A stretch of 64,000 nucleotides of DNA from Syntrophales bacterium (GCA_035448805.1 DAOTJR010000004.1:35848-99847); one strand, 5' to 3'. Counted from the stretch's first letter, positions 5,342 through 58,753 are shown. The notes: generated by a model not told the origin, from the sequence alone. Numbers and translations are program-made.

Positions 5342-6703
5342 TTGGACCAAAAATGGAAGGAAATATTTAATATCATTAAAGAAAATGTCGATGAGCATAA
5401 TTTCGATACCTGGATAAAGCCCCTCAAGATTATGTCCATGGACGAGCAGACCGTCCGCTTTTCCGTACCCAACCGCTTCTTTCGCGACTGGCTGGAGGAA
5501 AACCACCTGCGGGTGATCGCCGATTCCTTCCGGGCCGCCACGGGCCGCACTTATCAAATCGATTTCGTCATCACCCAGGAAAAGAAGGCTCCGGAGAAGG
5601 CATCCCCCGCCGCCCTGCCGGACCGGGAAGTCCGCACGGCCAGGAAAAGCAGCGCCGCCAGACAGTCGACGACGCTGAACCCCAAATACTCCTTCGCGCG
5701 CTTCGTCATCGGTGCCTCGAATCAATTCGCCCATGCCGCGGCTATGGCCGTGGCGGAACAGGCCGAACAGACCACCAAAAGCTACAACCCCCTGTTCATC
5801 TATGGGGGGGTAGGGCTGGGAAAGACCCATTTGCTCAATGCCATCGGGCTGAAGGTCCTGGACCTCCACCCGCACATGAACGTCGTTTACGTCTCCGCGG
5901 AATCCTTCATGAATGAATTGATCAACTGCATCCGCTTCGACAAGATGCCCGGCTTCCGGGACAAGTATCGCAACATCGACTGTCTGCTCATGGACGACAT
6001 TCAGTTCATCGCCGGCAAGGAGAGGACGCAGGAGGAATTTTTTCACACCTTCAACACCCTCCACGACGCGGGCAAGCAAATCGTCGTCACCAGCGATAAA
6101 TTCCCCAAGGAAATCCCCAATCTGGAAAGCAGGATCCGCAACCGTTTCGAGTGGGGACTGATCGCCGATATCCAGCCGCCCGACATCGAGACCAAAGTGG
6201 CGATTGTCGAAAAAAAGGCCAATGAAAACAACATCGATCTGCCGGCGAACGTCTCCTACTACATCGCCACAAACGCCGAGTCCAACATCCGGGAGCTGGA
6301 GGGTTTTCTGTTGCGGATCGTCGCCTATTCCTCCCTAAAGCACCGGGAAATCGACATCGACCTGGTCCGGGATGTCCTCAAACACATGATCCGCACCAAC
6401 TCCAGACAGGAGCTGTCCATCGACGACATCATCAAGGTTGTCGGGTCCAAATACGGGGTCAAGGCCGCCGATGTAAAATCTCACAAGAAAAACAAGAATA
6501 TCGTCGCCGCCCGCCAGATGTGCATGTATCTGGCGAGAAAATTCACCAACGCCTCGTTCCCCGACATCGGGGAACGGATCGGCGGACGCGATCACTCGAC
6601 CGTCATCTATGCCTGCAAGAAATTGACCGGCATGATGGAAAACGACAGAAAGCTTAAGAACCTCTGTGAAGAGCTCGAAGAGGCATTGAACAACATCAGT
6701 TAA
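5342..6703 (+). CDS. dnaA: Chromosomal replication initiator DnaA
   Basis: Blocks: FDTWIKPL at the N-terminus, AAA+ Walker A in NPLFIYGGVGLGKTHLL, the Walker B region LLMDDIQF, and the C-terminal DNA-binding block GGRDHSTVIYA. TTG 5342 has an AAGGGG Shine-Dalgarno 7 nt upstream. The ORF track opens at GTG 5309, which is an alternative start. Confidence 0.95.
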   Translation: MDQKWKEIFNIIKENVDEHNFDTWIKPLKIMSMDEQTVRFSVPNRFFRDWLEENHLRVIADSFRAATGRTYQIDFVITQEKKAPEKASPAALPDREVRTARKSSAARQSTTLNPKYSFARFVIGASNQFAHAAAMAVAEQAEQTTKSYNPLFIYGGVGLGKTHLLNAIGLKVLDLHPHMNVVYVSAESFMNELINCIRFDKMPGFRDKYRNIDCLLMDDIQFIAGKERTQEEFFHTFNTLHDAGKQIVVTSDKFPKEIPNLESRIRNRFEWGLIADIQPPDIETKVAIVEKKANENNIDLPANVSYYIATNAESNIRELEGFLLRIVAYSSLKHREIDIDLVRDVLKHMIRTNSRQELSIDDIIKVVGSKYGVKAADVKSHKKNKNIVAARQMCMYLARKFTNASFPDIGERIGGRDHSTVIYACKKLTGMMENDRKLKNLCEELEEALNNIS

Positions 6704-6808
6704 CCGGGACGCCAAGAGGTTATAAACAGCGCCTCAGCGAAGATAACGGATGTAGATCGGTAAGTTGTGGGTTATAAACCGTAGTGAACAGCCCTTACTA
6801 CTGGTTCT

Positions 6809-6845
6809 GTATTTTTTATTTAAATAAAAAAAATAAAAAAGAGGA
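6809..6845. other. AT-rich tract in the dnaA-dnaN spacer (candidate DNA-unwinding element / oriC component)
   Basis: The ~37-nt run TGTATTTTTTATTTAAATAAAAAAAATAAAAAAGAGG is almost pure A/T in an otherwise GC-rich genome. It is flanked upstream by two GGTTATAAAC repeats (6717-6726, 6767-6776). Confidence 0.35.
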
Positions 6846-6857
6846 AAGGAGTAAAGA

Positions 6858-7973
6858 ATGGAATTTCACATCGACAGGAATACCTTCCTGGAGGGAATTC
6901 AAAAGACCCTGGGGATCGTGGAACGTAAAACGACCATTCCTATTCTGAACAATATTCTCCTGCGTACCGAAGACAATCAGATCAAGATTGTCGCCACGGA
7001 CCGGGAGATCAGCCTGATCTCCCGATATGACGCCCGGATCGCCGTCCCGGGAGACATCACCCTTTCGGTGAAAAAACTTCATGAAATGATTCGGGAAACT
7101 CAGGGAGAAACGATCTATTTTTCGAAGAACGATCAGCATCAGGTGACCATGACCTGCAACAAGGCGATTTACCGCATCCCGGGGATGCCGGCGGATGAGT
7201 ATCCCCAGGTGGTGGAGGTGGAGGACATCCCTCTGTATCGGGTGTCCGGAGCGGTGTTGACGGACCTGATCCGCAAGACCTCCTTTGCCGTTTCCACCGA
7301 CGAGATCCGGATGAACCTGAACGGCATTTTTATGGAGACCGTCGGCCTCGGAGACAGTTCCCGCCTGCAGATGGTGGCGACCGACGGGCACCGCCTGGCC
7401 ATGGCGCGGGGACCGGCCGGTTCCGCCGGCGGACTGGAATTGGAAAAAGGGGTCATCATTCCCCGCAAGGGACTGTGGGAAGTGAGGAAAATAGCGGAAA
7501 ACGAAGCGGAGGTGGCGATCGGTTTCGATCATGGCATGTTCATCATGAAGACGAAGAACATCACCGTCAAAGTCAGTATGATCGATGCGGAATATCCGGA
7601 CTACCGGCGGGTGATCCCGGTGGAAAAGGGGACGGCGCTGCAATTCGGACGGGACAAGGTCCTCCATGCCCTGCGGCGGATGAGCGTTATCTCCAGCGAC
7701 CGTTACAGTGGCGTGATCATTACCCTCGGCAACAAGCTGATGGTCCTGAATTCCAACAACCCCGACGTCGGGGAAGCCAATGAAGAAATCGATGTCGATT
7801 ACGCGGGGGAAGAAATGGTCGTCAGTTACAACGTCAATTATCTGATCGACGCCATCGCGGCGGTGGATGAGGAAGAGGTGTCCTTCGAGATCAACCTCGG
7901 GATGAAACCGGGGGTGGTCCGGGGAATGGGTAATGAGGATTATCTGTGCATCGTCATGCCCTTGAAGTTATAA
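6858..7973 (+). CDS. dnaN: DNA polymerase III beta sliding clamp
   Basis: 371 aa. Blocks: MEFHIDRNTFLEGIQKTLGIVERKTTIPILNNILL and ATDGHRLA. It sits in the canonical position after dnaA. Confidence 0.95.
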   Translation: MEFHIDRNTFLEGIQKTLGIVERKTTIPILNNILLRTEDNQIKIVATDREISLISRYDARIAVPGDITLSVKKLHEMIRETQGETIYFSKNDQHQVTMTCNKAIYRIPGMPADEYPQVVEVEDIPLYRVSGAVLTDLIRKTSFAVSTDEIRMNLNGIFMETVGLGDSSRLQMVATDGHRLAMARGPAGSAGGLELEKGVIIPRKGLWEVRKIAENEAEVAIGFDHGMFIMKTKNITVKVSMIDAEYPDYRRVIPVEKGTALQFGRDKVLHALRRMSVISSDRYSGVIITLGNKLMVLNSNNPDVGEANEEIDVDYAGEEMVVSYNVNYLIDAIAAVDEEEVSFEINLGMKPGVVRGMGNEDYLCIVMPLKL

Positions 7974-49180: not shown

Positions 49181-49214
49181 GTGATAATATCCATGCACTT
49201 GCGGCCATTATCAC
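49181..49214. promoter_or_regulatory. Fur-box-like inverted repeat upstream of feoAB (GTGATAAT-18 nt-ATTATCAC)
   Basis: Perfect 8-bp arms at 49181-49188 and 49207-49214 contain the GATAAT/ATTATC hexamers of the Fur consensus. The site is about 45 nt upstream of the feoA ATG. The spacing is not the canonical contiguous 19-mer. Confidence 0.35.
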
Positions 49215-49258
49215 TTCAAACTGAGGCGGGAAAGCAACAGCAATGAGGCTGAACACTT

Positions 49259-51529
49259 ATGCCGGATAACGACAAAACGATACTCCCTCCGGTCGCCCTG
49301 CCCCTGAGCGAGCTGCCCGAGGGCGCAGAGGGCGTCGTCGCCTCCCTGGCCGGCGGCCGGGAACTGGCGGGCCGCCTGGCGGGGATGGGGATCTCCCTGA
49401 ACGCCCGTATCCGGATGCTCCGCAACAGCAGCGGCCTGATCATGGTTCAGGTCGGGGAAACGCGGATCGCCCTGGGTCATGGGGAGGCGGAGAAGATCGT
49501 TGTTCACCGGAGCGAACCGTCTCCGGAAGCGGAACCGTCTCCGGCGGCGCCGCGGCGTATCCTCGTAGCTTTGGCCGGCCAGCCCAATGTGGGCAAATCG
49601 ACGGTGTTCAATATCCTGACCGGCCTCTCCCAGCATGTGGGCAACTGGCCGGGCAAGACGGTGGAAAAAAAGGAAGGGGCCTACGTCTGCCGGGAGGGGG
49701 ACCTTTGCATCGTCGATCTCCCCGGCACCTACAGTCTCACGGCCTTTTCCGAGGAGGAGCGGGTCGCCCGGGACTTCATCCTCGACGAAAAACCCGATGT
49801 CATCGTCCTGCTGGCCAATGCCGCCGCCCTGGACCGGAGCCTGTACCTGCTTACGGAACTGCTTCTCCTCGGTCCGCCGGTGATCGTCGCCGTGAATATG
49901 ATCGACGTGGCGGAAACCCAGGGGATCCGGATCGACATCCCCGCCCTGGAGCGGGCCCTCGGGTTGCCCGTGGTGGGGATGATCGCCAAGAAGAACCAGG
50001 GGATCCGGGAGCTCATCAACCTGATCATCTCCCTCCGGCGGGGCGATATTTCCTATCAGCCGCGGCTTCCCGACATCGCCGCCGATCACCGGGACATATA
50101 CGAGGAGATCAAAGGGGTCATGGCGACGTACCTCCCGGAGCACCCCCGGCACAACTGGCTGGCGACGAAATTCATGGAGGGGGATGCGGAGGTGTCGAGG
50201 AAGATCGCCGCGGCGCTTCCCCCGGAAATCTGGACGCGCCTCCAGGGGATTCTGGTCAAGCACGAGGACTCCCTCCATGCCGTCGTGGGCGGCCGCTACG
50301 ACTGGATCGAGGCCGCCACCCGTTCCGCCGTCTCCCGGTTCAAGATGGGGCAGGTGGTCATGACGGACCGCCTCGACCACATCCTGACCCGTCCCGTTTA
50401 TGGTATCCCCATCCTTTTGGCCGTCTTTGCCGGGGTCTTCCTGATCACCTATAAGGTGGGATACCCCCTGCAAAAGGGACTGGAATGGCTGGTAAGGGCC
50501 CTGGCCCGGCAGGCGGCGCCCTGCCTTGCCTCCTTTGACCCCTGGGTAAGGGGGCTGCTCATCGACGGCGTCATCGGCGGCGCCGGTTCCGTCCTGACCT
50601 TCCTGCCGATCCTGGTGATCTTCTTCGCCGTCCTGGCGCTTCTGGAAGACGTGGGCTACATGGCCCGGGCGGCCTTCGTCATGGACCGGTTCATGCATCT
50701 CATCGGTCTGCACGGCAAGAGCGTCATCCCCATGTGTCTGGGGTTCGGCTGCAACGTGCCGGCGGTCCTCGGCGCCCGGATCGTCGAGTCGAAAAGGGAG
50801 CGGCTCCTGACGATCTTCCTGTCCCCCTTCATCCCCTGCACCGCCCGGCTGGCGGTCCTGACCTTCGTCACCGCCGCCGTTTTCACCTCCCAGGCCGCCG
50901 TGGTCTCCTGGTCCCTCCTGGCGGGCAACATCCTCCTCCTGGGCCTGACGGGCATGACCGTCAACCGGTTCCTCCTCAAGGACGAACCCCTCCCTTTCAT
51001 CATGGAGTTGCCCCTGTACCACAAGCCGGACCCGCGGACCATCGCCACGGTCATCTGGATCAGGACCCGGGAATTTGTCAGGCGGGCGGGAACGGTCATC
51101 CTCGGGGTTTCGGTCCTGGTCTGGGCGTTGTCCTACTTCCCCCATGGCCGTGTGGAAGACAGCCTGCTGGCGGCGTGCGGTCATTTTATCGAGCCTCTGG
51201 GGCGGCCCCTCGGACTCGACTGGCGCATGATGACCGCCCTGGTGACGAGTGTCGTGGCCAAGGAAAACGCCGTCGCCACCCTGGGCGTTCTTTACGGTGT
51301 CGGGGACGAGGGGCTGGTGCGGGTCCTGCCCACCGTCATGACCCCGGCCTCGGCCCTGTCCTTTCTCGTCGTGCTGATGCTGTTCATCCCCTGCGCGGCG
51401 ACGGTGACGGTGATGAAGCAGGAACTGGGAAGCCGGCGATGGTTCGGCGCCTCTTTCGCCCTGATGCTGGGTCTGGCCTTTCTCCTGGGTTTCGCCGCCT
51501 ACCGGCTGGCCCTGGGACTCGGCCTGTAG
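49259..51529 (+). CDS. feoB: Ferrous iron transporter, FeoA-FeoB fusion
   Basis: The N-terminal region is FeoA SH3-like (LSELPEGAEGVVASL...IRMLRNSSGLIMVQVGETRIALGHGEAEKI). Then the FeoB G-domain (VALAGQPNVGKSTVFN, VDLPGTYSL) and a polytopic Gate-domain C-terminus. Confidence 0.9.
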   Translation: MPDNDKTILPPVALPLSELPEGAEGVVASLAGGRELAGRLAGMGISLNARIRMLRNSSGLIMVQVGETRIALGHGEAEKIVVHRSEPSPEAEPSPAAPRRILVALAGQPNVGKSTVFNILTGLSQHVGNWPGKTVEKKEGAYVCREGDLCIVDLPGTYSLTAFSEEERVARDFILDEKPDVIVLLANAAALDRSLYLLTELLLLGPPVIVAVNMIDVAETQGIRIDIPALERALGLPVVGMIAKKNQGIRELINLIISLRRGDISYQPRLPDIAADHRDIYEEIKGVMATYLPEHPRHNWLATKFMEGDAEVSRKIAAALPPEIWTRLQGILVKHEDSLHAVVGGRYDWIEAATRSAVSRFKMGQVVMTDRLDHILTRPVYGIPILLAVFAGVFLITYKVGYPLQKGLEWLVRALARQAAPCLASFDPWVRGLLIDGVIGGAGSVLTFLPILVIFFAVLALLEDVGYMARAAFVMDRFMHLIGLHGKSVIPMCLGFGCNVPAVLGARIVESKRERLLTIFLSPFIPCTARLAVLTFVTAAVFTSQAAVVSWSLLAGNILLLGLTGMTVNRFLLKDEPLPFIMELPLYHKPDPRTIATVIWIRTREFVRRAGTVILGVSVLVWALSYFPHGRVEDSLLAACGHFIEPLGRPLGLDWRMMTALVTSVVAKENAVATLGVLYGVGDEGLVRVLPTVMTPASALSFLVVLMLFIPCAATVTVMKQELGSRRWFGASFALMLGLAFLLGFAAYRLALGLGL

Positions 51530-51599
51530 AGGAATAACGATCGCGGCGGCACCTGCCGCCGCGGCAGGGGCGGTCGCCGCCGGGGACGGAAAAAATATG

Positions 51600-51627
51600 T
51601 TGACTTTCAATGGGGATATTCTTTAAT
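51600..51627 (+). promoter_or_regulatory. sigma70-like promoter candidate for the four-lipoprotein operon (TTGACT-16-TTTAAT)
   Basis: TTGACT at 51600-51605 and TTTAAT at 51622-51627. It is preceded by a 9-bp GC inverted repeat GCGGCGGCA/TGCCGCCGC (51543-51562) just after the feoB stop. Confidence 0.3.
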
Positions 51628-51722: not shown

Positions 51723-52712
51723 ATGAAAAAGGGGACCATTTGGTGCCTTTTCCTGTCCCTGTTGTGGCTTCTCAACGGCTGCGCCACTATCGACAAGCCG
51801 GAGGTAAAGGCGATCGACAACAAGCCGCAGGTCAGTCCGGCGCCCCTTCAGCAGAACCTGTCCGCCAAAAAAGGGTTGAAAAGGAAAGTCGCCATCGCCC
51901 GTTTCACCAATGAGACAAAATACGGGCAGAGCTTCTTTCTCGATGAGCAGAAAGACCGGATCGGCAAGCAGGCGGTGGATATTCTGACCAACAAGCTCAT
52001 GCAGACGGACAAATTCATTATGCTGGAACGGGCGGATCTGGACAAGCTGCAGAAGGAGCTGGCGCTGGGAAACGCGGCGCCGCTGAGAAACATGGCCGAT
52101 TACCTCATCGTCGGCTCCATCTCGGAATTCGGCCGCAAAGACACCGGCGAAGTCGGCATCTTCAGCCGGACGAAAAGGCAGACCGCCTTCGCCAAGGTTC
52201 ATATCCGGATGATCGATATCTATACCGGTCAGGTCATTTATTCGGAAGACGGCGAGGGGTCGGCCTTTTCGGAGGCGGGGACCGTGTTCGGTGTGGGCGG
52301 CCGCGCGGGCTATGATTCGACTTTGAACGACAAGGCCCTGGAGGCCGCCATAACCAATCTGGCCTCGAATATCATCGAAAGGCTTCTCGACAAGCCCTGG
52401 CGGGGTTATATCCTGGGACAGGAGGACAATCAGTTGATCATCTCCGGCGGCAAATCCCAGAACATCAATGCCGGTGACGTCTTCACCGTGTATCAGGAGG
52501 GGAAAAAGGTCAAGAACCCCCAGACGAACATGGAAATGACCCTGCCGGCCAAGAAAATCGCGAAGATACAGGTTACGGCGACGCTCGGAGAAACGGCGGA
52601 AAAGGAAGTGTCCCTCTGCAAGGTCATCGAGGGAGAAAGGAACCTGGCCGATTACCAGGCAAAGAACGATTACAGCCGTCTGTTCATCGGCGAGGCGAAG
52701 GAGGGGCTTTGA
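51723..52712 (+). CDS. CsgG-family outer-membrane lipoprotein with a ~90-aa C-terminal extension
   Basis: Lipobox LLNGC. CsgG-like blocks: KVAIARFTNETKYG, FIMLERADLDKLQKE, YLIVGSISEFG, VHIRMIDIYTGQVIY. There is an extra C-terminal beta-rich domain (LIISGGKSQNINAGDVFTVYQEG...). Confidence 0.8.
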   Translation: MKKGTIWCLFLSLLWLLNGCATIDKPEVKAIDNKPQVSPAPLQQNLSAKKGLKRKVAIARFTNETKYGQSFFLDEQKDRIGKQAVDILTNKLMQTDKFIMLERADLDKLQKELALGNAAPLRNMADYLIVGSISEFGRKDTGEVGIFSRTKRQTAFAKVHIRMIDIYTGQVIYSEDGEGSAFSEAGTVFGVGGRAGYDSTLNDKALEAAITNLASNIIERLLDKPWRGYILGQEDNQLIISGGKSQNINAGDVFTVYQEGKKVKNPQTNMEMTLPAKKIAKIQVTATLGETAEKEVSLCKVIEGERNLADYQAKNDYSRLFIGEAKEGL

Positions 52713-52714
52713 TC

Positions 52715-53035
52715 ATGACCAAGAAATGGTTGGTCTTGGTACTGGCATTGTGGACCCTGGCGGGATGCGGTTACTATGAGGGCGTCGTCCAGCCGACGCC
52801 CCAAAGCTACCTGTCTTTCCTGGGCGATACGGACGGCGCCGTTGCGGTCATCGACGACCGGATCACCCTGAATCTCGGTCAGGAAATGCGGGGGGCGGAA
52901 AATGAAAAGAAGACCGTCCTCTTTCAATTGTCGCCGGGCAGGCACAAGGTGGTCGTGACGAAGAGGGGGCGGGAAGTCGTCAACAGGATCGTCATCGTCG
53001 GCGACGGGGCGACGAAGGAAATCCAGGTGCCATGA
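52715..53035 (+). CDS. Small lipoprotein, PEGA-like beta-sandwich (hypothetical)
   Basis: ATG 52715 follows GAAGGAGGGG. Lipobox TLAGC. LSPGRHKVVVTKRGREVVNRIVIV resembles the PEGA motif. The ORF-track TTG 52709 start is too close to the Shine-Dalgarno. Confidence 0.55.
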   Translation: MTKKWLVLVLALWTLAGCGYYEGVVQPTPQSYLSFLGDTDGAVAVIDDRITLNLGQEMRGAENEKKTVLFQLSPGRHKVVVTKRGREVVNRIVIVGDGATKEIQVP

Positions 53036-53505
53036 ATGTCCCTTTGGTAATCGTTTCCGCCGGGCTGATTCTCTTTCTCTCCGGTTGTGCGGGCGGTCAG
53101 AAAATGTACTACTGGGGCGACTATTCGGATACCCTTTATAAGTACAAGAAAAATCCCTCCGAGCAGTCCCTCCTCGATCACCGGCAGTCCCTGGAAAGGA
53201 TCCTGGAAGAGTCGGCGAAAAACAACCTGCGGGTCCCCCCCGGTGTATATGCGGAGCTGGGCTATATCTATTTCCGGCAGAACAAGAAAGATCTGGCTAT
53301 CCAAAACTTTCAGCGGGAGAAGGCCTTATATCCGGAAGCGACCCTGTTGATGGACAGATTGGAAAAGGCGGCCGTCCTGGCGGATAAACCTAAAGACGAC
53401 CGTGGGCGCACCAAGGAGCCGCCGCCTCCGGACAAAACGGATCGTCATGCCGAAGGGTCGCCGCCGGCTGCCGGCCCCGGCGGGGATAAAAAGGTGGCGC
53501 CATGA
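53032..53505 (+). CDS. DUF4810-like lipoprotein
   Basis: ATGA overlap with the upstream stop. Lipobox FLSGC. MYYWGDYSDTLYKY and a TPR-like helical segment (GVYAELGYIYFRQNKKDLAIQNFQREKALYPEA), then a Pro/Lys-rich tail. The family is named from memory. Confidence 0.65.
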   Translation: MNVPLVIVSAGLILFLSGCAGGQKMYYWGDYSDTLYKYKKNPSEQSLLDHRQSLERILEESAKNNLRVPPGVYAELGYIYFRQNKKDLAIQNFQREKALYPEATLLMDRLEKAAVLADKPKDDRGRTKEPPPPDKTDRHAEGSPPAAGPGGDKKVAP

Positions 53506-54218
53506 AAACCAAGCTCTCCGCCCGGAGGAATCTTCATAAAGCCCTGCTGTTGTTTATCATGCTGATCTGTATCAACCTGAGTGCCTGCGGGCCCAAGATG
53601 ATCACGAAGGGCGACAAATACCCCTTGCTGTATGAGGAACAGCCCGTTTCCATCCTGATTCTTCCCCCCATCAATGAGTCGACGGCGGCGGAGGCGAAAG
53701 ACTATTATGCCACGACGATTCAGGAGCCCCTTTCGTTTTGGGGTTACTACGTTTTCCCTTACGAGATTACGACGGAAATCCTCAAGATGGAGGGCATTTA
53801 TGATACCGAACTCCTGAAGAGTCTGCCGCTGCAAAAGTTCCGGGAATATTTCGGTGCCGATGCCGTCCTGTTTACCACCATAAAAAAGTGGGATCTCTCT
53901 TACCTGGTGATTGCCTCCAACCTGACTGTCTCCGTGGATTGCGAGTTGAAATCGACGCAGTCCAACGCCACCCTCTGGAAGTATAACGGCACCGTCACCG
54001 TGGATCTGTCCGGCGGCAATACCGGCGGCGGCCTGGTGGGGCTCGTCGTCAAAACGGTGGTGACGGCGGTCAGTTCCGCCATGGCGGACTACGTTCCCCA
54101 TGCCCGCACCGCCAATTACCGGGCCCTGCAATCCCTGCCCTACGGTAAGTACCATGCGCTGTACGGCAAGGACCGGACGCAACAATTCATGGATCAACCC
54201 CCGTTGAGCGACAGGTGA
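53502..54218 (+). CDS. DUF799 / GNA1162-like lipoprotein
   Basis: ATGA overlap with the upstream stop. Lipobox NLSAC. SILILPPINES, GYYVFPYEI, FGADAVLFTTIKKW and GGLVGLVVKTVVTAV parallel the N. meningitidis GNA1162 sequence as I recall it. Confidence 0.75.
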   Translation: MKTKLSARRNLHKALLLFIMLICINLSACGPKMITKGDKYPLLYEEQPVSILILPPINESTAAEAKDYYATTIQEPLSFWGYYVFPYEITTEILKMEGIYDTELLKSLPLQKFREYFGADAVLFTTIKKWDLSYLVIASNLTVSVDCELKSTQSNATLWKYNGTVTVDLSGGNTGGGLVGLVVKTVVTAVSSAMADYVPHARTANYRALQSLPYGKYHALYGKDRTQQFMDQPPLSDR

Positions 54219-54412
54219 GACCGGGGGCGGTGCCGCGCCGGCACAACCGCCGGACCTCCCGGCCGTTCCGGATCCCTGTTTCATCCTGACCGTATCTCTC
54301 CGTTGACCGTCATGTCCTGATGACGGCAGGGCGCACGATAAAGATTACCGGCAGGCGGCGGATGTTTTCATATCCGGCCCGGTAGGCGGGATGCCGCCGG
54401 GCCGGGCCGGGA

Positions 54413-55222
54413 TCAAAGATAGGCGTCGATGCCTACCCCTTGCAGGTTGGCGAGTTTGTCGATCAGGAAGGCGATATCGCTTTTCCCCGCGATGATCCCC
54501 CCGTGCTGGGGGGCGATGAGCTCAATGTCCAGGGGGCGGATCTGCTCCATGGCGTATTTCAGCGCCTTCCCGGAGGGCATGATCTTCTGGTGAAACTTGA
54601 TGATATCCGGCAGGGGGCAGTAGGGCCGCCCGATCGGGCAGCTTTTGTAGCCCCGGCAGGTATAGCAGTCCTCCCCCAGGCGGGTATAGAGCTCCCAGGT
54701 CTTCGAGAAGCTGCCGAAGAGATCGCTGCTGAAGAGTGTTTTCGTTTTGGCGTCGTAGGTCACGAAGTTGCCGGCATTGTGGCAGAACGGCGTCCTGAGG
54801 AACCGGAGCTTCCGGCCGTTGAACACGTAACCCCGGTCGGTGAAATTGACGGTCTTCAGCAGGGAGTGGTTTTCCTTGCCCAAGTAATAGGTCAGAAAGA
54901 TCCGGTCCAGGGGATCGGATAAGATCTGCAACGATGGATTGTCGATGATGTCGACAAGGTTGGCCATCGAACCGCACAGGTCGGGATCGTAGTGATGATA
55001 GATGAGCGCCGTGATCTGCCCCGGCTGGAGACCGGCCTGGAGGATCTTCATCATCACCACGGCGAAGTCGGGGCGGCTGCCGCCGTCGATGAGCACGGCC
55101 TGATCCCCTTCCACGATCAGATAGGGGTTGCAGTGGAGATTGGTCTTTTCTTCATAGAAACCCACCCAGGAGATACCGTCGGCGATGGGAATGGGCCGGT
55201 CGTACTCATGCACGCTGTTCAT
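54413..55222 (-). CDS. MBL-fold protein resembling the di-iron domain of flavodiiron proteins / ODP oxygen-binding di-iron sensors
   Basis: ISWVGFYEEKTNLHCNPYLIVEGDQAVLIDGG and IYHHYDPDLCG align with the FprA N-domain pattern (WVG...NAYLI...ALIDT...NHxExDHSG). It has a Cys-rich insert CYTCRGYKSCPIGRPYCP. The ATG overlaps the cyclase stop (ATGA). Confidence 0.7.
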   Translation of the reverse strand: MNSVHEYDRPIPIADGISWVGFYEEKTNLHCNPYLIVEGDQAVLIDGGSRPDFAVVMMKILQAGLQPGQITALIYHHYDPDLCGSMANLVDIIDNPSLQILSDPLDRIFLTYYLGKENHSLLKTVNFTDRGYVFNGRKLRFLRTPFCHNAGNFVTYDAKTKTLFSSDLFGSFSKTWELYTRLGEDCYTCRGYKSCPIGRPYCPLPDIIKFHQKIMPSGKALKYAMEQIRPLDIELIAPQHGGIIAGKSDIAFLIDKLANLQGVGIDAYL

Positions 55223-56040
55223 GATTCAGCTCCTTTCTTGGCGGCGGCGAAATACGCCGGCATGTCGGCCTTGTTTTTCAGGGCGATTTTTCCCCGGGGC
55301 TCGAAGTCGAAGCGGTCTCGTGCCGCCAGATAGGTGGTTTGGGAGACGTTCACCCGCCCGGTGAGGCCCGCGGCCTCGAACCGGGCGGCGATGTTGACGT
55401 CATCTCCGAAGACGTCGAACTGCATCCGTTCCCGGCCGACGACCCCGGCCATGACCCGGCCGGTATGGATTCCCGCCCGCATCTGCACGTCCTGCCGATG
55501 ATTCTTGTTGAAGGCGCCAAGAAATTCAAGAATTTCCAGGGCCGCCTGAATCCCCTGGACGGCATGGTCGGGATAGACCTCCGGAGCGCCGAAGACCACC
55601 ATATAGGCGTCGCCGATGGTCTTGATCTTGGTGCCCCGGCAGCGGGTGATAAGATCGTCGAAGCCGCTGAAGAGCTCATTGATGAGGTCGATCAGGGCCT
55701 CGCCCGTCATCCTTTCGGCCAGCCGGGTGAACCCGGCGATGTCGAGAAAGAGGATGGTGCAGTGGAAGGGCCGGGGGGCATAGTGCCCCCGGTATTTGAT
55801 CTCCTCCGCTACCGGTCCGGGCAGGGTGTTGCGGAGAAGATCCGTAACCCGCCGCTCCAGGGAAACGTACTTTTCGATCAGTTGCTTAAGAAGACGCCGC
55901 TGGAGGCGGGAATCCCCCAGGGCCGCCTGGGAGTCGAGAAAATGCCAGGTCAGCAGCTCGGAATCGGCCCCGTTCCGGTCGGCAAGCCGACAGATATTGC
56001 TGAGATTTTCCTTTTGCAAGGCTCCTGTCCTCCGGGCCAT
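55219..56040 (-). CDS. Class III adenylate/guanylate cyclase (short coiled-coil N-terminus, no sensor domain)
   Basis: Blocks: TILFLDIAGFTRLAE, KTIGDAYMVVFG, GIHTGRVMAGVVG and FDVFGDDVNIAARFE. ATG 56040. The 459-aa ORF-track version runs over the upstream gene in another frame. Confidence 0.87.
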   Translation of the reverse strand: MARRTGALQKENLSNICRLADRNGADSELLTWHFLDSQAALGDSRLQRRLLKQLIEKYVSLERRVTDLLRNTLPGPVAEEIKYRGHYAPRPFHCTILFLDIAGFTRLAERMTGEALIDLINELFSGFDDLITRCRGTKIKTIGDAYMVVFGAPEVYPDHAVQGIQAALEILEFLGAFNKNHRQDVQMRAGIHTGRVMAGVVGRERMQFDVFGDDVNIAARFEAAGLTGRVNVSQTTYLAARDRFDFEPRGKIALKNKADMPAYFAAAKKGAES

Positions 56041-56066
56041 GAATCGGGTTTGCCGGATATGCCGGG

Positions 56067-56594
56067 TCAAAATTCCATTGCCGTCAGCCGCCAGGTCAGG
56101 CCGTGGCGACGCATAATGAACCGCACCGTTCCCTCCGGTCCTTCCGGGACGACGATGGTGAATTCGGCGGGACCGGTATAGGAGAACTCGGTATTCCTCA
56201 GGAAGGCCGCCAACAGGGACCAGGCCCCCGGGGGGCCGGAGTCGCCCGCCGCCGCCGTCATCCTTTCTTTCATGAAAGCCGCCATACCTTCCGGGGTAAC
56301 CAGATCGTCCACCGCCCGGTCCACGAGCCGCCGGACCAGAGAATCGCGGAGATCCTTCCCCGCCGCCGGTGGCTGCTCCCCGGGGACGTTCAGGATCTTG
56401 GCGGTGAGGAAGCGTTTGAGATGCTCCCGCAACCGGTCGAAATCGATGAGCTCCGAGAGCTTCGCCATGTCCTGGGTCTCGAAGGCCGCCATGATTCTGT
56501 AGAGCGCCAGGTAGGGCAGGCTGTAAAAGACGCCCGCGCCCAGGGAGACCAGCAGGCAGCCGGCGATGAGGACGGCCCGTTTCTTCACGGTCAA
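56067..56594 (-). CDS. DUF2939-like membrane-anchored protein
   Basis: N-terminal TM (AVLIAGCLLVSLGAGVFY), then LPYLALYRIMAAFETQDMAKLSELIDFDRLREHLKRFL. The family is named from memory. The ATG overlaps the upstream stop by 4 nt. Confidence 0.6.
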   Translation of the reverse strand: MTVKKRAVLIAGCLLVSLGAGVFYSLPYLALYRIMAAFETQDMAKLSELIDFDRLREHLKRFLTAKILNVPGEQPPAAGKDLRDSLVRRLVDRAVDDLVTPEGMAAFMKERMTAAAGDSGPPGAWSLLAAFLRNTEFSYTGPAEFTIVVPEGPEGTVRFIMRRHGLTWRLTAMEF

Positions 56595-57001
56595 TCACCC
56601 CAGCCGATAACTTCGTAGCCCTTTGTACTCAGGCAGCGGTTTACGAAGGATTTATACAGCGGACTCGGTTCGGAGGCCTTGATGACCCCGGAAACCAGGC
56701 CGGCGGCCGCTCCGGCCGCCGCCCCCACCCCCAGGTCCGACCCGAAGCTTCCCCGCACCGCCCCGACGGCCCCGCCGACCACGGCCCCGCCGGCCCCGCC
56801 GATGACCGTATCCTTGGCGACGGTCTTGGCGGCGTCGGATTTAACATAGGCCTCCGCCTGTTGCCGGCAGTCCGCGATATCCCGATCCGCCTGCTCCTGC
56901 CCTACCGTCTTCAGGTAGGCGTTGGGATAGAGCACGGGACCGGAGGCGCAACCGCCCAGGAACATGATCAGGGCAATGGTGAGACAAAAAAGCCTTTTCA
57001 T
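56591..57001 (-). CDS. Glycine-zipper lipoprotein
   Basis: Lipobox FLGGC. The Gly-zipper segment is VIGGAGGAVVGGAVGAVRGSFGSDLGVGAAAGAAAGLVSGV. 136 aa. It is the first gene of the minus-strand operon. Confidence 0.65.
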   Translation of the reverse strand: MKRLFCLTIALIMFLGGCASGPVLYPNAYLKTVGQEQADRDIADCRQQAEAYVKSDAAKTVAKDTVIGGAGGAVVGGAVGAVRGSFGSDLGVGAAAGAAAGLVSGVIKASEPSPLYKSFVNRCLSTKGYEVIGWGD

Positions 57002-57079
57002 CGCTGACTCCTTTTATCGACCCCCGCCGGGGGGGGACTTTCTGAAGAGGGAAAACCGCCTTTCCCTCACAAATGCGTT

Positions 57080-57160
57080 AGTATGAAAAGACACCGGGGT
57101 GATTTCCATAAATCATTTTCATCGCTCGCCGGTGCCGCCCCGGCATGAAAATTTATATGT
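57080..57160 (+). repeat. 81-nt structured repeat, copy B (74/81 identical to 48324-48404)
   Basis: It has the same three ATGAAAA(T/G)/ATTTTCAT modules. The internal palindrome is perfect here (TGATTTCCATAAATCA, 57100-57115). It lies between the rsmB stop (57374) and the lipoprotein-operon start (57001). Confidence 0.85.
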
Positions 57161-57373
57161 CATTGATCTGCAACGGTTTATCATTAGCGGGGCCGCTGCG
57201 GGCACGGTGGAGCGCGTCCCGCCGTTTTCATCCTGCTTGGTGACGGCGTCCCGTCATGAGGGTTTCATTCGCAGACGTTTCCCGTAAATTTTCATGTCCG
57301 GGCGGTACCCGGTCACGATGCAAATCTCCTGGTCGAGCCGTCTATGTGAGGTACAAGATGAACCCGTAAAACG

Positions 57374-58753
57374 TCATCTCCCGCCCTCACCCGGGGCTGC
57401 TTTTACCAGCACCGCCCCGAAGAAGCCGTCGGTGCCGTGGCGATGGGGCAGGGTGCGGAAATATCCCCGCTCATCGACAAGGTCCGCCGCCATATCTTCC
57501 GGAACCGCGAGGCGGAATTCCGGCCGGCGGGCGAGAAACGCGGCGACGACCGTCTCGTTCTCCTCCGGCATGATGCTGCAGGTGCTGTATATGAGGCGCC
57601 CGCCCGGCTTTACGTAGTCTCCGGCCCGGTCCAGGAGGCGTTGCTGCCGGGTGGTGTGTCTTGGCAACTGCCCGGGTGTGAGGCGCCACTTGATCTCGGG
57701 ACACCGCCGCAGCGTTCCCAGCCCCGAGCAGGGGACATCCACGAGGACCCGGTCGCAGGATGCCGCCGCCACCCCCGCCAGGGGCCGGGTGGCATCCGCG
57801 GCGACGGCGGTGATGATGGTGATGCCCAGGCGGTCCGCAAGTTTTGCCATCTCCTTTATTTTGCCGGCCCGCAACTCCACGGCGATGATCCGGCCCCGGT
57901 TGTCCATGAGTTCCGCCATCTGGGTCGCCTTCCCGCCGATGCCGGCGCAAAGATCCAGGACCGTGTCGCCGGCGGCGGGATTGACCAGCCGGGCGACGAG
58001 CTGCGAAGCCTCGTCCTGAATCTGGATGCTTCCCCGCCGGTAGGGGACGGTATCCCGAAGGCGTTTCCCGGCGGTCCGGACCACTAGACCCGCCTCGGAA
58101 TATCCGGTTTTTTCCGCCGTGATCCCCTCCCGGGCCAGTTCCTCTATAACCTTTTCCCGGGTGGTTTGCAACCGGTTTACCCGCAGGACCGGGGCCGGGA
58201 TGGTGTTGTTGGCTTGGCAGAGGGCCAGGGTTTCCTCGGGACCCCATTGCCGGAGCCAGCGTGCGATGAGCCAGGGGGGGTGGGAGTGGACGACGGCCAG
58301 ATAAGAAGGCAGATCGTCCTGAGGCCCCGGATAGGGCAGGTCGTCCCGATGGCGCAGGACGTTTCTGAGCAGGGCGTTGACCAGCCCGTCCCGTCCGGGG
58401 CAGAGGGTTTTGGCCAGCGCCACGGCCTCATGGACGGCCGCCCGGGGCGGTATCCGCTCCGTGTAGAAGACCTGATAGAGGGCGGTGCGGAGGATGTTCC
58501 GGAGGACCGTTGCCCCCGTCGGCAGTTCCTTTTGGAGCATCCGGGTCAGGATCCAGTCCAGGAATCCCCGCATCCGGAGGGTTCCATAAACCAGCTCCGT
58601 GAGCAGCGCCCGGTCCCGGGGGTCGCCGTCCGGCCGGCGGGAAAGACAACGGTCGAGAAGGGGTTCGGCGAAGGCCCCGCCCCTGTCGATGCGGTTCAGG
58701 ATTTCGACGGCGAGCAAACGGGGGTTGAACTGTATCTTGTTGATTTCCATCAT
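57374..58753 (-). CDS. rsmB: 16S rRNA (cytosine967-C5)-methyltransferase RsmB/Sun
   Basis: NusB-like N-terminus (NPRLLAVEILNRIDRGGAFAE). SAM motif VLDLCAGIGGKATQ, catalytic DVPCSGLGTLRR, and IYSTCS. Confidence 0.9.
   Translation of the reverse strand: MMEINKIQFNPRLLAVEILNRIDRGGAFAEPLLDRCLSRRPDGDPRDRALLTELVYGTLRMRGFLDWILTRMLQKELPTGATVLRNILRTALYQVFYTERIPPRAAVHEAVALAKTLCPGRDGLVNALLRNVLRHRDDLPYPGPQDDLPSYLAVVHSHPPWLIARWLRQWGPEETLALCQANNTIPAPVLRVNRLQTTREKVIEELAREGITAEKTGYSEAGLVVRTAGKRLRDTVPYRRGSIQIQDEASQLVARLVNPAAGDTVLDLCAGIGGKATQMAELMDNRGRIIAVELRAGKIKEMAKLADRLGITIITAVAADATRPLAGVAAASCDRVLVDVPCSGLGTLRRCPEIKWRLTPGQLPRHTTRQQRLLDRAGDYVKPGGRLIYSTCSIMPEENETVVAAFLARRPEFRLAVPEDMAADLVDERGYFRTLPHRHGTDGFFGAVLVKAAPGEGGR

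Follow-up and report, generated by a model that had tools for sequence, protein, structure and literature searches.

Many bacterial class III nucleotide cyclases carry no recognizable input domain, and their mode of regulation has long been an unsolved problem. Here, one such cyclase is described together with its possible sensor, a metallo-β-lactamase (MBL) fold protein of the family of oxygen-binding di-iron proteins (ODPs), both encoded in a 64,000-nucleotide stretch of DNA from a Syntrophales bacterium (GCA_035448805.1, DAOTJR010000004.1:35848-99847; the whole stretch is called the window below, and positions are counted from its first letter). Four minus-strand genes lie in series at this locus, as the initial annotation of the window had described, and all four open reading frames (ORFs) were confirmed with the spacings between them. 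In the order of transcription, these encode a small Gly/Ala-rich lipoprotein of 136 amino acids (56591..57001), a DUF2939 protein of 175 amino acids with an N-terminal transmembrane helix (56067..56594), a sensor-less cyclase of 273 amino acids that is predicted to be a class IIIa adenylate cyclase (55219..56040; Pfam Guanylate_cyc, E = 1.4e-54) and an ODP-family di-iron MBL-fold protein of 269 amino acids (54413..55222; Pfam ODP PF19583, E = 1.4e-51), which belongs to a four-Cys subfamily and is the candidate trans-acting sensor. The cyclase gene follows the DUF2939 gene after 26 nt, and its stop codon overlaps the start codon of the ODP gene in an ATGA (55219..55222, minus strand). A Shine–Dalgarno sequence, AAGGAG, is located at 55235-55230, 7 nt 5′ of the ODP start; together with the ATGA overlap, this indicates translational coupling of the cyclase and the ODP.

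The MBL-fold protein matches the Pfam ODP profile over its full length (positions 1-194 of 194). In a phmmer search of the PDB sequences, the best matches were 6qrq/6qwo (E = 2.5e-20) followed by 6qnm/6r9n (E = 6e-11), all of which are entries titled 'Oxygen-binding diiron protein', with the flavodiiron proteins (FDPs) ranking below them at approximately 1e-7. An AlphaFold2 (AF2) model with a predicted local distance difference test score (pLDDT) of 91 was compared with known structures using Foldseek, and the top seven matches were ODP chains from Thermotoga maritima and Treponema denticola (6qwo, 6qrq, 6r9n and 6qnm), followed by FDP cores. The protein had initially been likened to the N-terminal di-iron domain of the FDPs; the di-iron MBL fold of that description stands, but the closest relatives, by sequence and by Foldseek, are the ODPs ahead of the FDP cores. 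The identity to the solved ODPs is only approximately 25%.

MBL motif 2, H77-Y-D79-P-D81-L82 (54977..54994, minus strand), has the ODP form HxDxD[L/V]. HHYDPDL could be aligned both with HQDPDV of the ODPs and with HxExDH of the FDPs, which bore out the earlier remark that HHYDPD replaces HxExDH. Among 117 homologues, D79 is retained in at least 90%, and no substitution occurs at H77, D81, L82, H148, D167, Q239, H240 or G241. H148 (motif 3), D167 (motif 4) and H240 align to the remaining ligands of the ODPs and FDPs, so that all of the metal ligands, when scored against the FDPs and the T. denticola ODP, were aligned and conserved. Motif 5 is formed by Q239-H240 (54503..54508, minus strand), and the Gln in this motif is specific to the ODPs, in which it takes over from the third His that motif 2 lacks (PMC7785958). 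The window protein ends after the MBL domain and its alignments to the FDPs stop at the core; the absence of a flavodoxin domain, which had also been noted, was thus verified. Because this domain is absent and HxDxDL is found instead of HxExDH, the protein is assigned to the ODPs and not to the FDPs. The hydrolase motif HxHxDH is also absent, and the β-lactamase models of Pfam and NCBIfam match only weakly and below threshold. On these comparisons, the MBL-fold protein is a true ODP-family di-iron protein in which every predicted ligand has been kept, including the ODP-specific Gln.

The window ODP further contains an insert of approximately 15 residues that the solved ODPs lack in the alignment. 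Its four cysteines, C186-x2-C189-x5-C195-x6-C202, with C202 followed by P203 (54617..54667, minus strand), agree with the CxxC-x5-C-x6-C pattern in the initial annotation and are all invariant in the 117 homologues. The four cysteines are found, with slight variants in spacing, in all 82 unique ODPs from the loci described below, and likewise in ODPs partnered with GGDEF proteins, a histidine kinase and a PP2C phosphatase. The pLDDT of the AF2 model over the insert is 74-84. The spacing C-x2-C-x5-C is the same as that of Cys20/23/29 in FNR (PMC4672761). With the O2- and NO-labile [4Fe-4S] sensors of the FNR and Wbl types, the insert shares this spacing plus a fourth Cys; however, the likeness is one of spacing only, and the cysteines of the window protein sit in an insert within an MBL domain. 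The conserved cysteines suggest a second, possibly redox-active, site, for which Fe–S, Fe and structural Zn are candidates, Zn being equally possible.

In the cyclase, the Guanylate_cyc match (185 bits) covers residues 93-264, and the catalytic domain was placed at residues 90-266 (55243..55773, minus strand) from Pfam, conservation, the AF2 model and alignment to PDB entries. The metal-binding D100 and D144, the adenine-specifying K140 and D209, the phosphate-binding R188 and the transition-state residues N216 and R220 do not vary among 102 homologues. K140 lies within GTKIKTIGD, and D209 lies within QFDVFGDDVN, seven residues before N216, the same spacing as between D1018 and N1025 in AC2. 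Inspection of the substrate-specifying residues, which had been proposed as a check, gave a Lys/Asp pair of the ATP type and not the Glu and Cys/Ser of the GTP type. The best relatives in the PDB are the C1 domains of the transmembrane adenylate cyclases (tmACs), the soluble domain of Cya/Rv1625c with its helical domain (5o5k/5o5l) and soluble guanylate cyclase (sGC). Because the class III catalytic residues, including the Lys/Asp pair, are invariant, the protein is predicted to be an adenylate cyclase, and owing to these nearest relatives it is placed in class IIIa, where it would act as a homodimer.

The AF2 model of the cyclase (pLDDT 89) consists of a disordered tip (residues 1-11), helices at 12-20, 25-41 and 44-72, a transducer-element helix at 75-84 and the catalytic domain at 90-266. 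Neither this model nor Pfam revealed a globular input domain in the N-terminus, which contains helices only, and the original description of a cyclase with all of the catalytic blocks and no recognizable input domain is therefore upheld. The transducer element, or helical domain, DLLRNTLPGPVAEEIKYR, comprises residues 67-84 (55789..55842, minus strand). Its segment LLRNTLPGPVAEEIK is conserved, with L68, L69, N71, L73, P74 and V77 invariant, and aligns to the helical domain of 5o5k/5o5l. The window cyclase thus shares its catalytic residues and an LLxNxLPxxVA transducer helix with class IIIa cyclases such as Rv1625c/Cya (5o5k/5o5l), the mammalian tmACs and sGC with its coiled coil. It differs from them in lacking a membrane anchor and any HAMP, H-NOX/PAS or further input domain. 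In the place of an input domain is a helix–turn–helix module of approximately 45 amino acids that is specific to ODP-partnered proteins (residues ~25-66; 55843..55968, minus strand), delimited by the AF2 model, profile alignment with hhalign and a joint alignment (A4) described below, and proposed here as an adaptor on which the ODP may dock.

The conservation of the pair was analyzed at 102 loci containing an ODP homologue with 51-83% identity, of which 19 were from species-representative genomes, 80 were from metagenome contigs and three were from look-ups that started from the cyclase. A cyclase homologue was located directly upstream of the ODP gene at 93 loci using tblastn, and at one further locus (L035) with a 1-nt overlap. 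Six loci lie at contig edges and are not testable, and there are two true exceptions; the order of cyclase then ODP is therefore found in 94 of the 96 testable loci, a recurrence that places the adjacency far beyond chance. Viewed from the cyclase side, an ODP gene is directly downstream in all six homologues (6/6), with unrelated flanking genes. Co-occurrence and synteny of the pair in other genomes, the comparison suggested when the pair was first noticed, are thus retained from both sides. The two genes overlap by exactly 4 nt in 37/94 pairs, and 66/94 junctions measure 9 nt or less. The pair recurs among anaerobic Desulfobacterota; the hosts are Syntrophus, Syntrophaceae, Smithellaceae, Syntrophorhabdaceae, Desulfobacteraceae and Thermodesulfobacteriota, and include one cultured organism, Desulfatirhabdium butyrativorans (GCA_000429925.1), in which the pair occupies positions 6001-7630 of locus L020 (AUCU01000013.1).

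The genes for the lipoprotein and the DUF2939 protein accompany the pair only in a clade of approximately 80% identity, at 8/102 loci. The conserved unit is a two-gene cyclase–ODP cassette and not the four-gene row, and the two upstream genes, although members of the local operon, are lineage-specific and do not belong to the conserved core. Since they occur at so few loci, the lipoprotein and the DUF2939 protein provide no general argument for membrane localization, which had at first been suggested from the presence of two envelope proteins in the row, and this suggestion is not supported.

Several individual loci and neighbours deserve mention beside these counts. The four-Cys ODP of the clade at L054:3965-4813 is solitary: it adjoins mraZ/rsmH, and the genes around it encode neither a cyclase nor another module-bearing protein. 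A partner may lie elsewhere or may have been lost. Two cassettes of the Desulfobacterota type are found in metagenome-assembled genomes labelled as a Methanomicrobiales archaeon (L018, JBAXMF010000467.1) and as Thermoleophilia (L022, JBTSKV010000024.1), for which mis-binning or horizontal transfer is likely. An all-helical protein of approximately 155 amino acids adjoins the pair at 55/102 loci, on either side and on either strand (for example, L006:4070-4561, L007:6817-7296 and L020:7732-8190). It has invariant residues E17, E45-x2-H48, E108 and H141 and a weak match to symerythrin/rubrerythrin (E = 0.003 in the PDB; Pfam Rubrerythrin for 2/8 members), and may be a third, ferritin-like di-iron component in many lineages; as the window has no copy of it, it is left out of the feature. 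At 9/102 loci, including L009:1166-1594, L010:2164-2640, L016, L018 and L020:8844-9251, the cassette is flanked by a gene for hemerythrin (Pfam, E = 2e-15), which is a further di-iron protein that binds O2. The ferritin/symerythrin-like and hemerythrin neighbours are compatible with an oxygen-related role, but are no proof of it.

Partners of a different type were found for the same ODP subfamily. At one of the two exceptions, a Spirochaetales locus (L017), a four-Cys ODP gene overlaps the start of a PAS-GGDEF gene. Full-length homologues of this GGDEF protein are preceded by a four-Cys ODP in 4/4 cases (5/5 loci when L017 is included), and these ODPs are approximately 50% identical to that of the window. 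By eye, the first ~55 residues of the GGDEF partners resemble the N-terminus of the cyclase. When a hidden Markov model of the cyclase N-terminus was searched with hmmsearch, the one GGDEF protein of L017, placed among 2,637 background ORFs, was not a significant match (E = 0.43). When the N-terminal profiles of the cyclases and of the GGDEF proteins were aligned using hhalign, P-values of 3.6e-5 to 7e-5 were obtained across 53-55 columns. The real score of 26.7 was reached in 0/200 column shuffles (mean 9.1, standard deviation 2.0) and in 0/200 heptad-block shuffles (mean 12.5, standard deviation 3.0, maximum 22.3), while the reversed profile scored 8.4. The joint MAFFT alignment A4 needs no gaps to match the two groups across the conserved core, where D43 never varies and at least 90% of the sequences retain A39 and L54. 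In the AF2 model, D43 occupies the turn between helices 25-41 and 44-72. As judged by these profile comparisons, the N-terminal module of the cyclase is homologous to the N-terminus of the ODP-adjacent PAS-GGDEF proteins.

A profile of the module from A4 was then compared with 1.84 billion representative proteins and matched only 48 of them, too few for the module to be a generic coiled coil. Besides fragments of cyclases and GGDEF proteins, the matches included a HisKA-HATPase histidine kinase (P0405), a SpoIIE/PP2C protein (P0404) and a PAS-less GGDEF protein (P0403), with the module at the N-terminus. The neighbours of the histidine kinase and of the PP2C protein were looked up blind. The histidine-kinase gene starts 1 nt past the stop codon of an ORF that corresponds to the C-terminal portion of an ODP with the Cys insert and contains the residues SSDLFG...C..C...C...C...FHRRIM...APQHG...GIDG. 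The PP2C gene belongs to a complete genome of 6.84 Mb and begins 1 nt past the gene for an ODP of 287 amino acids with the pattern C-x2-C-x5-C-x6-C. Because both of the blind look-ups led to genes adjacent to an ODP, the module is tied to ODP partnership across four types of output.

Four other database proteins (P0388, P0398, P0400 and P0406) are in-frame joins of the first ~115 residues of a cassette cyclase with either a PLD domain or the C-terminal half of an ODP; if real, these would be decayed cassettes. The use of the module–ODP 'fusions' P0388 and P0398 and of the module–PLD protein P0400 as Rosetta-stone evidence was rejected, as the joins fall in the middle of the ODP or PLD and are probably assembly chimeras or deletions.

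From the family memberships, the conserved ligands, the synteny and the module with its link to ODPs, we infer that the ODP is a trans-acting sensor of O2, Fe or redox state that docks on the shared adaptor helix of the sensor-less cyclase, a reading to which we assign a probability of approximately 0.65. The idea that the MBL-fold protein senses for the cyclase in trans had been put forward from the window itself, and the recurrence of the module on GGDEF, histidine-kinase and PP2C partners lends it independent comparative support. In the proposed mechanism, the ODP would bind Fe(II), and O2 would react at the di-iron site, or oxidants or NO would react there and/or at the four-Cys site. The conformation or the oligomeric state of the ODP would then change, with the apo, Fe(II) and peroxo-Fe(III) forms as the relevant states, and this change would be read by the N-terminal module of the cyclase with the ODP docked on it. 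Via the helix–turn–helix and then the coiled-coil transducer element, the signal would reach the catalytic dimer and alter cAMP synthesis. In other lineages, the outputs controlled by the same combination of one ODP subfamily and one adaptor module would be diguanylate cyclases, a histidine kinase and a PP2C phosphatase.

Several points weigh against this reading. The likeness of the modules was first seen by eye and is hence post hoc, helical segments are prone to spurious similarity, the library-wide E-values of the histidine-kinase and PP2C matches are borderline (approximately 6e-4) and the blind look-ups number only two. The gene order varies, with the cyclase preceding the ODP but the ODP preceding the GGDEF protein, the histidine kinase or the PP2C phosphatase, and the ODP at L054 has no adjacent partner. 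In addition, Escherichia coli CRP, used as the query for cAMP receptors of the CRP type, had no significant match in the window or at the loci.

A wider proposal can be formulated, although only tentatively, and we consider it to be more doubtful than probable. Here, the four-Cys ODP would sense with two cofactors, the di-iron site and an O2/NO-labile Fe–S cluster on the FNR-spaced cysteines of the insert, and would form the constant input of a modular trans-sensor system that plugs via the ~45-amino-acid adaptor into adenylate and diguanylate cyclases, histidine kinases and PP2C phosphatases, with cAMP serving as an oxygen or redox alarm in strictly anaerobic syntrophs.

The closest precedents are the ODP–chemoreceptor pairs of Treponema denticola (TDE2498/TDE2496) and Thermotoga maritima, which were reportedly described by Muok and coworkers in PNAS in 2019. 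As in those pairs, the window encodes a stand-alone single-domain MBL di-iron protein with the ligand set HxDxD, H, D and QH, the gene for which adjoins that of a sensor-less signalling protein, and action in trans is presumed. The output in the window, however, is a class III adenylate cyclase, and hence cAMP, rather than a chemoreceptor and CheA; furthermore, the window subfamily carries the four-Cys insert, is only ~25% identical and has partners that share an N-terminal adaptor module. In these pairs, the ODP is an auxiliary O2/Fe sensor subunit for sensor-less receptors (PMC6978683; PMC7666581). ODPs also occur in operons with several signal-transduction genes and fused to signalling domains, and the neighbourhoods in the TREND case study include Pkinase, MCP, GGDEF/EAL, START and HD (PMC7319448). 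The recruitment of ODPs to several pathways is common to that list and to the present data, and the ODP–GGDEF pairs fit it; in contrast, the Guanylate_cyc, HisKA/HATPase and SpoIIE partners, the shared partner module and the four-Cys insert do not appear in that list (PMC7319448). The initial view that a pairing of an ODP with cyclic nucleotide synthesis was not known to be described agrees with this neighbourhood list, which is without class III cyclases (PMC7319448). In the literature consulted, class III cyclase, histidine-kinase or PP2C partners, the four-Cys subfamily and the shared module are unmentioned. The original ODP paper may cover some of these, and its neighbourhood analysis may already mention cyclases.

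Two further systems can be compared. With the FDPs (FprA, ROO and flavorubredoxin), the window ODP shares the MBL di-iron domain (TM-score of approximately 0.7) and the alignment of the remaining ligands, but it differs in having no flavodoxin domain and in having HxDxDL and the Gln of motif 5 for HxExDH. Stand-alone bacterial H-NOX sensors are encoded beside histidine kinases or GGDEF/EAL proteins. The logic proposed here is the same, with a small metalloprotein that binds a gas and controls, in trans, an enzyme lacking a sensor of its own, and with several types of output served by a single sensor family; however, the candidate sensor in the window has a non-haem di-iron MBL fold, and its partners carry a recognizable shared adaptor segment.

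The relationship to the FDPs also gives rise to the first of the rival explanations, in which the ODP-like protein is a flavodoxin-less di-iron enzyme that scavenges O2, NO or H2O2, uses the four-Cys site as a rubredoxin-like or Fe–S electron entry and is merely co-expressed with a regulator. The nearest non-ODP relatives are indeed the flavodiiron O2/NO reductases, a metal at the four-Cys site could stand in for the missing redox partner domain, and the ferritin/symerythrin-like (55/102) and hemerythrin (9/102) neighbours suggest an oxidative-stress neighbourhood. However, the protein has no FMN domain and its motif 2 is in the ODP form, not that of the FDPs; the coupling to four signalling outputs that share a dedicated module would be hard to explain; and the characterized role of the solved ODPs is sensing (PMC6978683, PMC7666581). 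Scavenging is therefore considered to be unlikely.

We also regard as improbable, and give rather little credence to, a reversal of direction in which the ODP is a regulated target of the signalling proteins or an accessory that handles metals or cofactors for them. The comparative data give linkage without direction and the gene order varies, as this explanation would allow. Nevertheless, the solved ODPs serve as sensors (PMC6978683, PMC7666581), and four outputs converging on a constant ODP form the pattern expected of a shared input. Furthermore, the partners have no other input domain, while the ODP has, as predicted from its sequence, a ligand-reactive metal site.

The MBL fold takes in the class II cyclic nucleotide phosphodiesterases and many other phosphodiesterases. 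Coupled with the adjacency to nucleotide cyclases, both adenylate cyclases and GGDEF proteins, this raises the very improbable alternative that the MBL-fold protein hydrolyzes the product of the cyclase, for example as a cAMP phosphodiesterase, in a module for synthesis and degradation. The motif HxHxDH is missing and the ligand set is that of an ODP, the hydrolase families of Pfam and NCBIfam match no better than weak background, and the histidine-kinase and PP2C partners make no cyclic nucleotide that could be degraded. Finally, a Pycsar-like anti-phage system of cyclase and effector appears to be highly implausible, since the weak PycC matches of the cyclase (best 60.5 bits, E = 3.8e-17), the match of the upstream DUF2939 protein to the PADLOC candidate PDC-S55 and the autonomy of a two-gene unit with variable flanks are set against a Guanylate_cyc score of 185 bits, far above the PycC score (itself a reflection of general class III homology), an invariant purine-type Lys/Asp pair, no PADLOC match for the ODP, neighbours that are housekeeping or O2-related and the absence of DUF2939 from most loci.

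Should the ODP act on the cyclase as a docked sensor, the ODP sensor paradigm would be widened from chemotaxis and c-di-GMP to cAMP and, via the module, to histidine kinases and PP2C phosphatases, and a first handle on the role of cAMP in obligate anaerobes and syntrophs would be obtained. The cassette provides a testable answer to the question of input for one large family of cyclases; over 1,000 members are present in the databases, the majority of them in Syntrophales, Desulfobacterales and other Thermodesulfobacteriota. The adaptor module can serve as a sequence signature for the genome-wide prediction of ODP partners. Because one host, Desulfatirhabdium butyrativorans, is in culture, the proteins are obtainable and can be assayed.

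As for the remaining genes of the row, the DUF2939 protein was recognized correctly at the outset (Pfam DUF2939, E = 2.7e-19; 69.7 bits versus a gathering cut-off of 24.8 bits). It also matches PDC-S55, the PADLOC phage-defence candidate family, with E = 7.6e-27. The glycine-zipper lipoprotein of the initial annotation survives as a lipoprotein, with the lipobox FLGGC in its translation; its glycine-zipper match is sub-threshold, as the score against Gly-zipper_YMGG is 24.6 bits, under the cut-off of 28.9 bits. The start of the DUF2939 gene is ambiguous: a TTG gives a 4-nt overlap with the lipoprotein gene, and a GTG located 2 nt past the lipoprotein stop is equally possible. For the cyclase, an alternative TTG start at 56070, forming a TTGA with the DUF2939 stop (56067-56070), would lengthen the protein by ten amino acids (MTRHIRQTRF-). 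Both upstream junctions, 56067-56070 and 56591-56594, can therefore be read as TTGA overlaps in which a TTG start lies on the preceding TGA stop and, if both starts are real, translational coupling would extend across all four genes; these overlaps are not kept in L001 or L002.

No minus-strand promoter or terminator exceeding the shuffle expectation was detected over 54100-57500, and an Rfam search of 54000-57600 gave no match. The row is preceded, across a gap of 372 nt, by rsmB and fmt in the same orientation. Downstream of the ODP gene, and convergent with it, lies a plus-strand cluster (51723-54218) of CsgG-like, small lipoprotein, DUF4810 and GNA1162-like lipoprotein genes, with Pfam E-values of 2e-28, 6e-28 and 6e-36, and apparently without any relation to the cassette. 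Approximately 3 kb from the ODP gene, a plus-strand ORF of 756 amino acids (49259-51529) appears by eye to be a FeoA–FeoB ferrous-iron transporter fusion, with the G-domain motif GQPNVGKST, and the long ORF antisense to it (49211-51610) is an artefact of high GC content.

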